A DNA stretch of 64,000 bases from Octopus sinensis (Eukaryota): NCBI RefSeq assembly GCF_006345805.1, contig NW_021835957.1:1-64000 (forward strand), given 5' to 3'. Of this stretch, positions 35,435 to 39,977 are shown in pieces; position 1 is the stretch's first letter, and each line of letters begins with the position of its first letter. The position numbers and the translations under genes are program-made. The notes under the pieces are model-generated. The model saw only the letters and a program-made list of their open reading frames with translations. It was not told the origin of the DNA and did no database searches.

Positions 35435-38400
35435 CAGAGATCAAAGAGGAGTGCCGACAGAGATCAAAGAGGGGTGCCGACAGAGATCAAAGAGGGGTAC
35501 CGACAGAGATCAAAGAGGGGTGCCGACAGAGATCAAAGAAGGTGTCGACAGAGATCGAAGAGGGTGCCGACAGAGATCAAAGAGGGTGCCGACAGAGATC
35601 AAAGGGGTGCCGACAGAGATCAAAGAGGGGTGCCGACAGATATCAAAGGAGGTCCCGACAGAAATCAAAGAGGGGTGCCGACAGAGATCAAAGGGGGTGT
35701 CGACAGAGATCAAAGAGGGGTGCCGACAGAGGTTAAAAAGGGTGCCGACAGAGGTTAAAAAGGGTGCCGACAGAGGTTAAAAAGGGTGCCGACAGAGATC
35801 AAAGTGAGTGCCGACAGAGATCAAAGAGGGGTGCTGACAAGGATCAAAGGGGGTGCCGACAGAGATCAAAGAGGGGTGTCGACAGTGATCAAAGAGGGGT
35901 GCCGACAGAGATAAAAGGGGGTGCCGACAGAGATCAAAGAGGGGTGCCGACAGCAATCAAAGAGGGTGCCGACAGAGATCAGAGGGGTGCCGACAGAGAT
36001 CAAAGAGGGGTGCCGACAGGAATCAAAGAGGGTGCCGACAGAGATCAAAGAGGGGTGCCGACAGAGATCAAAGAGGGGTGCCGACAGAGATCAAAGAGGG
36101 GTGCCGACAGAGATCAAAGAGGGTGCCGACAGAGATCAAAGACGGGTGCCGACAGATATCAAAGGGGGTGTACAGAGATCAAAGTGGTGCCGACAGAGAT
36201 GAAAGAGGGGTACCGACAGAGATCAAAGAGGGGTGCCGACGGAGATCAAAGAGGGATGCCGACAGAGATCAAAGAGTGGTGCCGACAGAGATCAAAGAGG
36301 GATGCACAGAGATCAAAGGGGGTGCCGACAGAGATCAAAGGGGGTGCCGACAGAGATCAAAGGGGTGCCGACAGAGATCAAAGAGGGGTGCCGACAGAGA
36401 TCAAAGAGGGTGCTGAAAGAGATCAAAGAGGGGTGCCGACAGAGATAAAAGAGGGTGCCGACAGAGATCAAAGAGGGGTACCTACAGAGATCAATGGGGG
36501 TGCCGACAGAAATCAAAGAGAGGTGCCGACAAAGATCAAAGAGGGGTACCGACAGAGATCAAAGGGGGTGCCGACAGAGACCAAAGAGAGTGCCGACAGA
36601 GATCAAACAGGGGTGCCGACAGAGATCAAAAAGGGTGCCGACAGAGATCAAAGGGGGTGCCGACAGAGATCAAAGAGGGGTGCTGACAAAGATCAAAAGG
36701 GGTGCCGACAGAGATCAAAGAGGGGTGTCGACAGAGATCAAAGAGGGGTGCCGACAGAGATCAAAGGGTGTGCCGACAGAGATCAAAGAGGGGTGCCGAC
36801 AGAGATCAAAGAGGGATGCCGACAGAGATCAAAGAGGGGTATCGACAGAGATAAAAGAGGGTGCCGACAGAGATCAAAGAGGGTTGCCGACAGCAATCAA
36901 AGAGGGTGCCGACAGAGATCAAAGAGGGGTGCCGACAGAGATCAAAGAGGGGTGCCGACAGAGATCAAAGAGGGGTGCCGACAGAGATCAAAGAGGGGTG
37001 CCGACAGAGATCAAAGGGGATGCACAGAGATCAAAGGGGTGCTGACAGAGATCAAAGGGGGTGCCGACAGAGATCAAAGAGGGTGCCGACAGAGATCAAA
37101 GACGGGTGCCGACAGATATCAAAGGGGGTGTACAGAGATCAAAGGGGTGCCGACAGAGATCAAAGAGGGGTACCGACAGAGATCAAAGAGGGGTGCCGAC
37201 GGAGATCAAAGAGGGATGCCGACAGAGATCAAAGAGGGGTGTCGACAGAGATCAAAGAGGGATGCACAGAGATCAAAGGTGGTGCCGACAGAGATCAAAG
37301 GGGGTGCCGACAGAGATCAAAGGGGGTGCCGACAGAGATCAAAGAGGGGTGCCGACAGAGATCAAAGAGAGGTGCCGACAGAGATCAAAGAGGGTGCCGA
37401 AAGAGATCAAAGAGGGGTGCCGACAGAGATAAAAGAGGGTGCCGACAGAGATCAAAGAGGGGTACCTACAGAGATCAATGGGGGTGCCGACAGAAATCAA
37501 AGAGAGGTGCCGACAAAGATCAAAGAGGGGTGCCGACAGAGATCAAAGGGGGTGCGGACAGAGACCAAAGAGAGTGCCGACAGAGATCAAAGAGGGGTGC
37601 CGACAGAGATCAAAAAGGGTGCCGACAGAGATCAAAGGGGGTGCCGACAGAGATCAAAGAGGGGTGCTGACAAAGATCAAAAGGGGTGCCGACAGAGATC
37701 AAAGAGGGGTGTCGACAGAGATCAAAGAGGGGTGCCGACAGAGATCAAAGGGGGTGCCGACAGAGATCAAAGAGGGGTGCCGACAGAGATCAAAGAGGGA
37801 TGCCGACAGAGATCAAAGAGGGTACCGACAGAGATCAAAGAGGGGTATCGACAGAGATAAAAGAGGGTGCCGACAGAGATCAAAGAGGGGTACCGACAGA
37901 GATCAATGGGGGTGCCGACAGAAATCAAAGAGAGGTGCCGACAGAGATCAAAGAGGGGTGCCGACAGAGATCAAAGGGGGTGCCGACAGAGACCAAAGAG
38001 GGTGCTGACAGAGATCAAAGAGGGGTACCGACAGAGATAAAAGAGGGTGCCGACAAAGATCAAAGAGGGGTACCGACAGAGATCAAAGGGGGTGCCGACA
38101 GATGTCAAAGAGATAAAAGAGGGTGCCGACAGAGATCAAAGAGGGGTACCGACAGAAATCAAAAAGGGGTGCCGACAGAGATCAAAGAGGGATGCCGACA
38201 GAGATCAAAGAGGGTGTCGACAGAGATCAATTGGGATGCCGACAGAAATCAAAGAGAGGTGCCGACAGAGAGCAAAGGGGTGCCGACAGAGATCAAAGGG
38301 GGTGCCGACAGAGATCAAAGAGGGGTGCTGATATAGATCAAAGGGGGTGCCGCCAGAGATCAAAAAGGGTGCCGAAAGATATAAACGAGATCAAAGAGGG

Positions 38401-39977
38401 GTGCCGACAGAGATCAAAGAGGGATGCACAGAGATCAAAGGGAGTGCCGACAGAGATCAAAGGGGGTGCCGACAGATATCAAAGACGGGTATCTACAGAG
38501 ATAAAAGAGGGTGCCGACAGAGATCAAAGAGGGGTACCGACAGAGATCAAAAAGGGGTGCCGACAGAGATCAAAGAGGGATGCCGACAGAGATCAAAGAG
38601 GGTGCCGACAGAGATCAATTGGGGTGCCGACAGAAATCAAAGAGATGTGCCGACAGAGAGCAAAGGGGGTGCCGACATAGACCAAAGAGGGTGCCGACAG
38701 AGATCAAAGAGGGGTGATGATAGAGATCAAAGGGGTGCCGCCAGAGATCAAAAAGGGTGCCGAAAGATATAAAAGAGATCAAAGAGGGGTGCCGACAGAG
38801 ATCAAAGAGGGGTGCCGATAGAGATCAAAGGGGGTGACGACAGAGATCAATTGGGGTGCCGACAGAAATCAAAGAGAGGTGCCGACAGAGAGCAAAGGGG
38901 TGCCGACAGAGATCAAAGGGGATGCCGACAGAGACCAAAGAGGGTGCCGACAGAGATCAAAGAGGGGTTCCGACAGAGATCAAAGAGGGGTGCCGACAGA
39001 GATCAAAGAGGGGTGCCGACAGAGATCAAAGAGGGTGCCGACAGAGATCAAAGAGGGTGCCGACAGAGATCAAAGAGGGATGCACAGATATCAAAGGGAG
39101 TGCCGACAGAGATCAAAGGGGGTGCCGACAGAGATCAAAGAGGGGTGCCGAAAGAGATCAAAGAGGGGTGCCGATAGAGATCAAAGAAGGGTGCCGACAA
39201 GGATCAAAGAGGGTGCCGACAGAGATCAATGGGGTGCCGACAGAGATGAAAGGGGGTGCCAACAGAGATCAAAGAGGGGTGCCGACAGAGATCAAAGGTG
39301 GTGCCGACAGAGATCAAAGAGGGGTACGACAGAGATCAAAGGGTGTGCCGACAGATACCAAAGAGGGGTATAGACAGAGATCAAAAAGGGGTACCGACAG
39401 AGATCAAAGAGGGATGCCGACAGAGATCAAAGAGGGGTGTCGACAGAGATCAAAGAGGGATGCACAGAGATCAAAGGGGGTGCCAACAGAGATCAAAGGG
39501 GGTGCCGACAGAGATCAAAGAGGGGTGCCGAAAGAGATCAAAGAGGGTGTCGATAGAGATCAAAGAAGGGTGCCGACAAGGATCAAAGAGGGTGCCGACA
39601 GAGATCAATGGGGTGCCGATAGAGATCAAAGAAGGGTGCCGACAGAGATCAATGGGGGTTCCGACAGAGATCAAAGAGGGGTGCCGACAGAGATCAAAGA
39701 GGTGTGCCGAGAGAGACCAAAGGGTTGCCGAAATAGATCAAAGAGGGTGCCGAGATCAAAGAGGGTGACAGAGATCAAAGGAGGTACCGACAGAGATTAA
39801 AGGGGATGCCGACATAGATCAAAGAGGGGTGCCGACATAGATCAAAGAGGGGTGCCGACAGAGATCAAAGGGGGTGCCGACAGAGATCAAAGAGAGGTGT
39901 CGACAGATATCAAAAGGGGTGTCGACAGAGATCAAAGAGTGTGCCGAAAAAGATCAAAGAGGGTGCCGAAAGAGATC
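35435..39977 (+). repeat. Satellite/minisatellite array, consensus GGGGTGCCGACAGAGATCAAAGA (23 bp, variants 19-23), roughly 200 units
   Basis: Direct reading; the copy number is estimated as length/unit. Each unit contains AGATCAAAG and GCCG. Confidence 0.97.

Follow-up and report, generated by a model that had tools for sequence, protein, structure and literature searches.

A minisatellite resembling bipartite TCF sites, carried as cargo by a young composite Helitron in Octopus sinensis

Canonical non-autonomous Helitrons are defined by a 5' TC, a 3' CTRR and, some 11 bp short of the 3' end, a 16-20-nt palindrome (PMC4067079). Helentrons are set apart as a group by having subterminal inverted repeats and targeting TT. 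In Caenorhabditis, Helitrons carry HSF-1 sites and hold 61% of all genomic heat-shock elements (HSEs), with binding and gene activation demonstrated (PMC6927752). A study of Wnt reporters describes natural Wnt-response elements as devoid of the high-density clusters of perfect HMG sites seen in TOPflash (PMC3916239). The best-bound HMG/helper geometry is AK6, with KK0 second-tier, and methylation of the helper CpG strongly lowers TCF binding in vitro.

The window analyzed here, a 64,000-nucleotide stretch of Octopus sinensis DNA (NW_021835957.1, positions 1 to 64,000), contains on its plus strand a minisatellite array at 35435-39977, made of about 203 units of 21-23 bp with the majority unit AGAGATCAAAGAGGGGTGCCGAC. 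The extent, period and copy number given in an earlier note on this DNA were borne out by TRF (35435-39977, period 23, 202.3 copies) and by our own segmentation, which gave 203 units; higher-order duplications of 984 bp and 428 bp lie inside the array. The same note had claimed a TCF/LEF site in almost every unit. The array is real, but that claim was overstated: AGATCAAAG is present in 137/203 units and the perfect reporter site, AGATCAAAGG, in just 34/203. Measured against the HMG site CTTTGWWS / SCTTTGATS, the ATCAAAG core occurs in 156/203 units, a density of 34 per kb, and the flanking S in a minority, the commonest unit having A rather than G/C beside CAAAG and the majority unit departing from consensus at 2 of 11 HMG positions; AGATCAAAGGGGGT was found in 21/203 units. 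For the helper half, GCCGAC is present in 133/203 units and RCCG in 78%, core and RCCG jointly in 59% of the 198 clean window units, and the commonest unit has six of the seven helper bases (GCCGACA). The two perfect GCCGCCA motifs reported earlier, at 38349 and 38737, are indeed the only ones.

Like the TOPflash and 6xHMG-Helper (POPHHOP) reporters, the array has head-to-tail HMG sites and an akimbo helper (PMC3302780, PMC3916239). Of the 23 bases in the 6xHMG-Helper unit, the 22-bp majority unit shares 20 and one window unit 22 (PMC3916239); this best single unit (38335-38356, plus strand) equals the 23 synthetic bases minus one. In comparison with the reporters, the family is natural, reaches about 350 units, is mostly imperfect beside CAAAG and at helper position 5, has a spacer 1-2 bases shorter, and no adjacent promoter was found. 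The motif geometry, AK4-5 plus KK0, is close to AK6, but it is largely forced, since the motifs take up 18 bases of a 22-23-bp unit and just 4-5 remain to share out. When units of two lengths were shuffled (300,000 times each), AGATCAAAG arose at 3-4e-4 and AGATCAAAG together with a 6/7 helper at 2e-5; the match is thus rare per unit, yet it represents one founding event, and the figure is uncorrected for other satellites or motifs that could have matched.

The array lies within a 5,878-bp composite Helitron (34140-40017, plus strand), which has defined ends and an arm repeated at other loci. The element sits between the host bases A (34139) and T (40018) and shows no evident target duplication; its ends read A^TC ... 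hairpin-CTAG^T, and the 3' terminus (39978-40017, plus strand) includes a 16-nt hairpin of -4.5 kcal/mol at 39990-40005, which stops 12 nt short of the end, and CTAG at 40014-40017. Counting the window, the 3' end precedes a host T in 18/18 copies (17 CTAG, 1 CTTG), and a 5' TC after a host A is clear in 13/18, three copies blurring into (TA)n and two having no 5' match. The 1.3-kb left arm recurs at 16-17 array-carrying loci besides the window (93-99.8% identity). Flanks, judged by eye, are unrelated in 15 of these copies; one further locus is the other haplotype of the window, 99.3% identical over 15 kb and also carrying the array. An empty site was recovered for none of them. The element occupies 17 places including the window, 15 of them on two chromosomes (11 copies on C8 at 1-21 Mb, 4 on C16 at 12.5-13.7 Mb); its arms differ by 1.8% pairwise, and its arrays are 90 to 334 units long. 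By its ends, hairpin, AT target and dispersed copies without evident target-site duplication, the host element is a canonical non-autonomous Helitron. The Helitron context was absent from the earlier note.

With canonical Helitrons the element shares the 5' TC, 3' CTRR, 16-nt hairpin, insertion between A and T, lack of duplication and captured DNA, but it is built of two short Helitrons joined head to tail and, as cargo, carries a SINE-bearing fragment plus 2-7.5 kb of satellite (PMC4067079). With the Cg_HINE Helentrons of the Pacific oyster it has in common that a mollusc rolling-circle element spreads tandem arrays, there as central repeats; it differs in its canonical ends and in a satellite of which at least 34 further arrays exist free of the element (PMC7492417). 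Assignment to the Helentron/HINE class (DINE-1, Cg_HINE) was rejected, the target being AT, not TT.

The composite structure can be traced to its parts, all on the plus strand. Module A (34140-34520) is a complete short Helitron with 5' TC, its own hairpin and CTAG, and is the source of the 5' end; it is borne out by a 3' end match and by a copy that stands free at C2:197.03 Mb (89.8% over 400 bp). Module B (34521-34869) belongs to a second short Helitron, represented by its 5' part and split by the cargo: the copy at C16:13.30 Mb lacks the interruption (87% over 349 bp) and continues to the identical 3' end. The captured host fragment (34870-35434) comprises a repeat at about 34874-35271, which we take to be SINE-like, and about 163 bp of low-copy DNA. 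It matches C14:53.886 Mb (96.3% over 568 bp), where neither Helitron nor array is present. The Helitron-free array nearest in unit make-up is C14:54.78, with an overlap of 0.24 versus at most 0.10 for the other 33. It is likely that the cargo was patched in from two C14 templates 0.9 Mb apart, presumably as filler captured at a break in module B. The Helitron would then have been mobilized in trans and hopped locally on C8 and C16, and array length may have shifted by unequal exchange or slippage.

An assembly artefact or reporter-plasmid contamination, which the likeness to synthetic units might bring to mind, is refuted by locus-specific variants in 52 arrays, nearly all on large chromosomes, by natural Helitron junctions, and by unique cargo beside the array that is covered in 4/4 public sequencing runs; we give it practically no credence. 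Contigs of these four runs pass the left junction by 24-25 bases only, against a bar of 31. At least half of the words of the arm were found in each of 14 public runs, RNA entries holding only small shares.

Both neighbors named in the earlier note lie where it had placed them, outside the element. CK2-beta (54718-63941, minus strand) has exons at 56595-63941 and its last coding exon at 54718-54855; its stop codon is 14.7 kb from the array, which is beyond the 3' end of the gene. On the other side, 21 kb away, is an exon at about 14402-14491 (minus strand), which we take to be the first coding exon of a nudE-like gene; it gave no Pfam match itself, and NUDE_C matches appear about 50 kb further along the corresponding chromosome, C8. 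No hidden gene near CK2-beta or between nudE and the array was recovered when 98 of 227 candidate frames and controls were scanned, the sole frame above the cut-off being a Mos1-type transposase HTH at 47791-48237. The positions of both genes, the presence of the array on both haplotypes and its location upstream of nudE, in intergenic DNA that has retained its CpGs, fit an enhancer or sink dedicated to one of these genes. However, the array is the recent insertion of an element found at 16 other places, with dozens more arrays in unrelated contexts; it lies 21 kb from the nudE start and past the CK2-beta 3' end, and nothing distinguishes it from the other copies. Being multi-copy Helitron cargo from a dispersed family undercuts a gene-specific role, which we regard as very improbable.

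A genome search for more arrays of the unit, as the earlier note had proposed, showed that it is not unique to the window. It belongs to a 22-23-bp minisatellite family of 50-plus dispersed arrays, of which 52 arrays with 6,627 units were examined, the estimated total being about 9,000 units; a metagenome scan gave no matches. Helitron-free arrays adjoin unrelated DNA, including telomere-like tracts, a 9-bp satellite, broken rDNA and microsatellites. An origin in the rDNA spacer, prompted by a 28S match beside one array, was rejected, the junction lying just past the 18S 5' end, within the gene region; an array is present at 4 of 30 loci with that rDNA stretch (three places, one counted twice), and 16 of 30 continue rDNA-like without units. 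Two hints that the unit might derive from a SINE, a 19-base likeness at 30985-31003 and one array that ends in a SINE, are too short to judge. Perfect sites make up at most 28% of units in every array, the C2:13.81 array has lost both motifs from most units, and of some 590,000 cores expected across the genome the family supplies about 1%.

Comparison of variability inside and outside the motifs gave a divided answer. Among the 23 possible 7-bp windows, ATCAAAG varies least in each of the three array sets, and it remains lowest after context correction. The core/other ratio in Helitron-free arrays is 0.45-0.62 (rank-test p <=0.003), or 0.47-0.62 in 33 such arrays with the context correction applied. 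The helper, in contrast, is no quieter than background (ratio 1.18-1.29 in Helitron-free arrays): helper-breaking G18C/T variants reach at least 20% in 9 of 34 array groups, and 16 high-frequency variants are located at C23. The TCF idea survives at the level of the family, and the motif match is closer than had been claimed in its geometry, its reporter bases, its quieter core and the predicted C-clamp TCF of the host, but the helper half is not conserved.

These data bear on whether the family serves as a docking repeat for TCF, its HMG-box and C-clamp binding kept by selection. For the host, the arrays would be mobile Wnt-responsive enhancers, bending domains or sinks; for the repeat itself, open chromatin would aid amplification and Helitron movement in Wnt-active germ or stem cells. 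The quiet core, the near-AK6 and KK0 geometry, the similarity to a working reporter unit and a C-clamp TCF in the genome speak for it, as does the precedent of HSF-1 sites in C. elegans Helitrons (PMC6927752). Against it, besides the helper result and the forced geometry, the core signal falls short of significance both when the window array is taken by itself (p 0.13-0.31) and across the 17 arrays carried by Helitrons (p 0.08-0.30), the core ranks 2 of 23 under an alternative CpG treatment, and the loss of one site in 200 would be nearly invisible to selection. We consider such selection possible but doubtful.

The state of the CpGs has been weighed on both sides of this question. Array CpGs show no excess decay (O/E 0.38-0.53 versus SINE CpGs), and flank CpG o/e exceeds 0.45 for 17/17 Helitron copies; the DNA looks unmethylated, and both values count in favor of docking, given the weaker TCF binding in vitro once the helper CpG is methylated. 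On the other side, CpGs of the arms hardly decay either (0.18 vs 0.14 events per site). Across 51 arrays, CpG decay did not correlate with CpG depletion of the flanks (rho -0.04).

Alternatively, the TCF likeness could be coincidental and the arrays unbound in vivo, the core being quiet through context mutation bias or through another DNA-binding protein. Such a protein could be a zinc-finger, GATA-type or nuclear-receptor factor. Mutation rates by trinucleotide, tabulated from dispersed repeats, predict much of the observed profile (rho 0.64), and the position profile of private young variants follows that of standing ones (rho 0.89; p=0.11 in the standing/private test), so mutation bias suffices for low core variability. 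The unit matches even the reporter's spacer bases, which shows the reach of chance, and its majority form misses two HMG positions. Yet the core remains the lowest window once context-corrected, and ATCAAAG is dense in apparently unmethylated DNA. We judge coincidence rather unlikely.

A short degenerate pattern search located a TCF-type HMG exon at C6:82.244 Mb and a C-clamp exon at C6:82.276 Mb on the same strand, from which we infer that they belong to one gene and that the genome encodes a C-clamp TCF. The best PDB match was the SLC2A4 regulator (E=0.006); a Pfam PF08347 search for TCF gave no match, and no TCF was among 30 HMG loci retrieved.

We incline, without great confidence, to the view that the array is a copy of a dispersed minisatellite in a young Helitron, probably taken up as filler during repair and then dispersed by rolling-circle transposition, a predicted TCF-binding passenger and not a selected enhancer. 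Judged from sequence, host TCF can probably bind these mobile passengers, with a selected host role probably absent. This reading is supported by the motif loss at C2:13.81, the helper-breaking variants, the low share of perfect sites in every array, the similar profiles of young and standing variants and the small fraction of genomic cores; optimal sites never sweep. The quieter ATCAAAG counts against it, because a neutral passenger would not predict low core variability. The A-to-G change that creates a perfect site was seen in 215 of 1,544 distinct units, versus 38 of 1,696 at a same-context A; this excess and the rarity of shuffles matching both bipartite halves were also counted against the passenger reading. 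A selected Wnt role for the array itself appears unlikely, if worth keeping in mind.

What has been found is a natural, partly mobile family of thousands of near-consensus HMG-plus-helper units. Tentatively, and against our own expectation, it might be a natural mobile Wnt reporter, a minisatellite composed of bipartite TCF sites, maintained because TCF binds it and recently copied by a Helitron to at least 17 loci with 90-330 sites each; every insertion would then be a potential beta-catenin-responsive enhancer or DNA-bending domain, able to rewire neighboring genes. The Caenorhabditis HSE Helitrons likewise hold dense clusters of one transcription factor's site, but there binding and activation were demonstrated (PMC6927752), while here the factor is TCF, its sites are predicted, and they amount to about 1% of the genomic cores. 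If TCF occupies the arrays, they would be the Wnt counterpart of the nematode heat-shock Helitrons, with some 17 young insertions of differing length as a built-in test; if TCF is absent, the family would show how chromatin excludes it from dense sites. Either way, the locus documents the capture by a Helitron of a pre-existing satellite whose likely templates are still traceable.

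A single tandem array with a period of 23 bp (202.3 copies, 83% matches) was identified by TRF at 35435–39977, with the same bounds and unit length as in the earlier note. Segmentation gave 203 units with the majority unit AGAGATCAAAGAGGGGTGCCGAC. The 9-mer AGATCAAAG, said to lie in almost every unit, is present in 137 of the 203, or two thirds, and does not occur in the rest of the window. The TCF core ATCAAAG was counted 156 times among these units, GCCGAC 133 times and AGATCAAAGGGGGT 21 times. Judged by its SINEs and genome size, the host looks like an octopus. The TOPflash reporter site AGATCAAAGG (sequence confirmed in the accessible part of PMC3302780) does recur, but in one in six units (34/203) rather than in many, and the two perfect GCCGCCA units are found at 38349 and 38737, as described.

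The array is carried by a 5,878-bp non-autonomous Helitron (34140–40017). An identical 38-base end is present twice, at 34483–34520 and 39980–40017, and the 154-base stretch bordering the array on its left matched 19 places: the window, 17 others that continue into an array and one on chromosome C14 that does not. One of the 17, at C8:4.28 Mb, is the other haplotype of the window (99.3% over 15 kb); the contig as a whole (1–64000) looks like an alternative haplotype of the C8 segment at ~4.25–4.31 Mb. The left arm shared by the copies begins at 34140. Among 18 copies, the 5′ end is A^TC in 13, blurred into (TA)n in three and without a 5′ match in two; the 3′ end is CTAG^T in 17 and CTTG^T in one, and 12 nt away from it there is a hairpin of 16 nt. 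These are the canonical Helitron marks (5′ TC after A, 3′ CTRR before T, hairpin near the 3′ end) given in the available portion of PMC4067079. The copy on C6 has a different, longer 3′ tail.

The element is composed of two short Helitrons, each of which also has a free-standing copy, and the array, together with a fragment of 565 bp, interrupts the second. The fragment matches C14:53.886 Mb at 96.3%, where there is neither Helitron nor array, and the unit make-up nearest to that of the Helitron arrays is at C14:54.78 Mb (overlap 0.24, next 0.10, among 34 Helitron-free arrays compared). Two templates 0.9 Mb apart on C14 would have been joined within a broken Helitron, which fits filler-DNA capture during break repair. 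Pairwise arm divergence among 16 aligned copies is low (1.8%, a figure uncalibrated for rate that assembly errors may inflate), and the spread is therefore recent. On C8, eleven copies fall within the first 21 Mb, and on C16 four share a stretch of 1.2 Mb, a distribution that suggests local hopping.

The proposed genome search for this unit, by pattern and similarity, yielded at least 34 Helitron-free arrays on C1–C8, C10, C11, C13, C14, C16 and an unplaced contig. The parsed sample comprises 52 arrays with 6,627 units; one further array was seen. A 12-mer counted 5,137 times genome-wide (1,288 for the reversed control) and 2,825 times inside the sample puts the family at roughly 9,000 units. 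Free arrays begin and finish in any phase, and what borders them is unrelated from place to place: microsatellites, tracts resembling telomeres, broken rDNA or a 9-bp satellite. Some have flanks in common, so that not every array is independent. At C14:55.276–55.289 Mb (loci L082, 5030–10000, and L133), arrays of opposite orientation stand on both sides of an orphan piece of rDNA that runs from the 28S 3′ end through the spacer to the 18S 5′ end; the same junction of array and rDNA is seen again at C6:83.96 and twice at C10:34.52. Arrays at L092, L093, L099 and L102 lie within or beside degenerate telomere-like (CCCTAA)n, mostly far from contig ends. The 9-bp satellite, GACATTCCW, often adjoins the array (L073, L074, L079, L083, L101, L102) and alternates with it in ten blocks at C13:54.50. 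Four arrays (L041, L061, L095, L133) contain internal inversions, with units head-to-head or tail-to-tail. At C14:52.45, array and microsatellites interrupt (L081, near 4100 and 5750) a fragment that we take to resemble a Penelope-type reverse transcriptase.

In the accessible part of PMC4154663, the best-bound HMG–helper arrangements are AK6 and FF0 (IC50 5.1 and 9.4 nM), followed by KK0 (39–67 nM), with HMG-only probes at 292 and 969 nM. By the standard of these probes, every helper in the array has the AK4-5 arrangement with one site and KK0 with the following one, a geometry partly forced by unit length; 9/11 HMG bases and 6/7 helper bases agree. The reporter unit in the available text of PMC3916239 equals the 22-bp majority unit at 20/23 bases and window 38335–38356 at 22/23. 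A TCF-type HMG exon is present in the genome and is followed, 31 kb downstream, by a C-clamp exon of the same strand, a pair that agrees with PMC4999783 as far as accessible. Shuffled units match both motifs at 2e-5 per unit, uncorrected for the many other satellites and motifs. That the likeness is coincidence, or marks a different binder, we consider rather unlikely.

A comparison of motif with other positions, as the earlier note proposed, found the core less variable and the helper not conserved. Across 34 array groups (33 free arrays, one near-duplicate dropped, plus the pooled Helitron arrays), ten motif-core positions vary at 0.43 (G/C, p=0.002) and 0.56 (A/T, p=0.012) of the same base class elsewhere; several test definitions were tried, and all bootstrap intervals are too narrow because arrays share ancestry. 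Correcting for sequence context with trinucleotide rates tabulated from dispersed repeats leaves ATCAAAG at 0.55 (p=0.013), second among 23 circular shifts, while RCCG is not significant (0.78, p=0.27). When CpG is given the rate of non-CpG sites, ATCAAAG has the lowest value among the 23 windows in each of the three array sets: 0.47–0.62 in the 33 free arrays and 0.45–0.60 in 20 arrays found otherwise than through the motif (p 0.003 or less in both). This persists without the G-run. Taken by themselves, neither the 17 Helitron arrays (p 0.08–0.30) nor the window array (p 0.13–0.31) show a significant effect.

Functional TCF docking across the whole family, to which the low variability of the core would point, is a possibility we rate at distinctly less than even. 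The six matching helper positions show no conservation (1.18–1.29), helper-breaking changes at the R position reach 20% or more in nine array groups, and of the 18 units in the C2:13.81 array, 33% contain the core and 17% RCCG. Substitution toward a perfect helper is rare, with A22C in 20 distinct units as against G in 65 and T in 47, and perfect HMG sites reach at most 28% of any array. The change that makes a perfect HMG site is enriched (215/1,544 vs 38/1,696), which the neighbouring G-run could also cause. The 251 copy-private variants, whose calls may contain reshuffled old variants, vary along the unit in the same way (rho 0.89; p=0.11 in the ratio test). Selection therefore fits no better than mutation bias or than protection from a bound protein.

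CpG o/e in the window is 0.1–0.39 at 1–8 kb, 0.45–1.26 at 22–47 kb and 0.03–0.48 over the CK2-beta region (47–64 kb). The 16000–22000 stretch between nudE and the array is CpG-depleted (0.26–0.45) and could represent a gene body or 5′ intron so far unrecognised; Pfam gave no match there. A Mariner/Mos1 transposase fragment (HTH_48, E=6e-8) lies at 47791–48237 (−), and two more, apparently intronless CK2-beta-like matches, possibly retrocopies, at C6303:305053–305696 and 482881–483368. CpGs in SINEs mutate at two to four times the rate of other C, those in the arrays at no higher rate, and flank o/e exceeds 0.45 for 17/17 Helitron copies, so that by this proxy the arrays look unmethylated. Unmethylated CpG keeps the helper usable, according to the accessible part of PMC4267635. 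Arm CpGs behave much as array CpGs, and the unmethylated look therefore reflects location. As a TCF sink the family is small: outside the window it holds 5,211 cores in 6,428 units, compared with ~590,000 expected genome-wide by composition.

The closest cases are oyster Helentrons, likewise satellite-carrying (PMC7492417, available part), and Caenorhabditis Helitrons with HSF-1 sites (PMC6927752, available part); the accessible portion of PMC8896005 on the latter mentions neither TCF nor POP-1. Among the papers listed by the literature searches, which covered few subscription papers, none describes this repeat or any natural satellite built of TCF sites, and the family may already be catalogued in repeat databases or genome-paper supplements. 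Helentrons with satellites reportedly figure in a second oyster study too. We hold a local enhancer to be very improbable and give an artefact practically no credence. On balance, and by a slight preference, we read the array as a satellite captured as filler and spread by a Helitron, with predicted TCF binding and without a selected role at CK2-beta or nudE.
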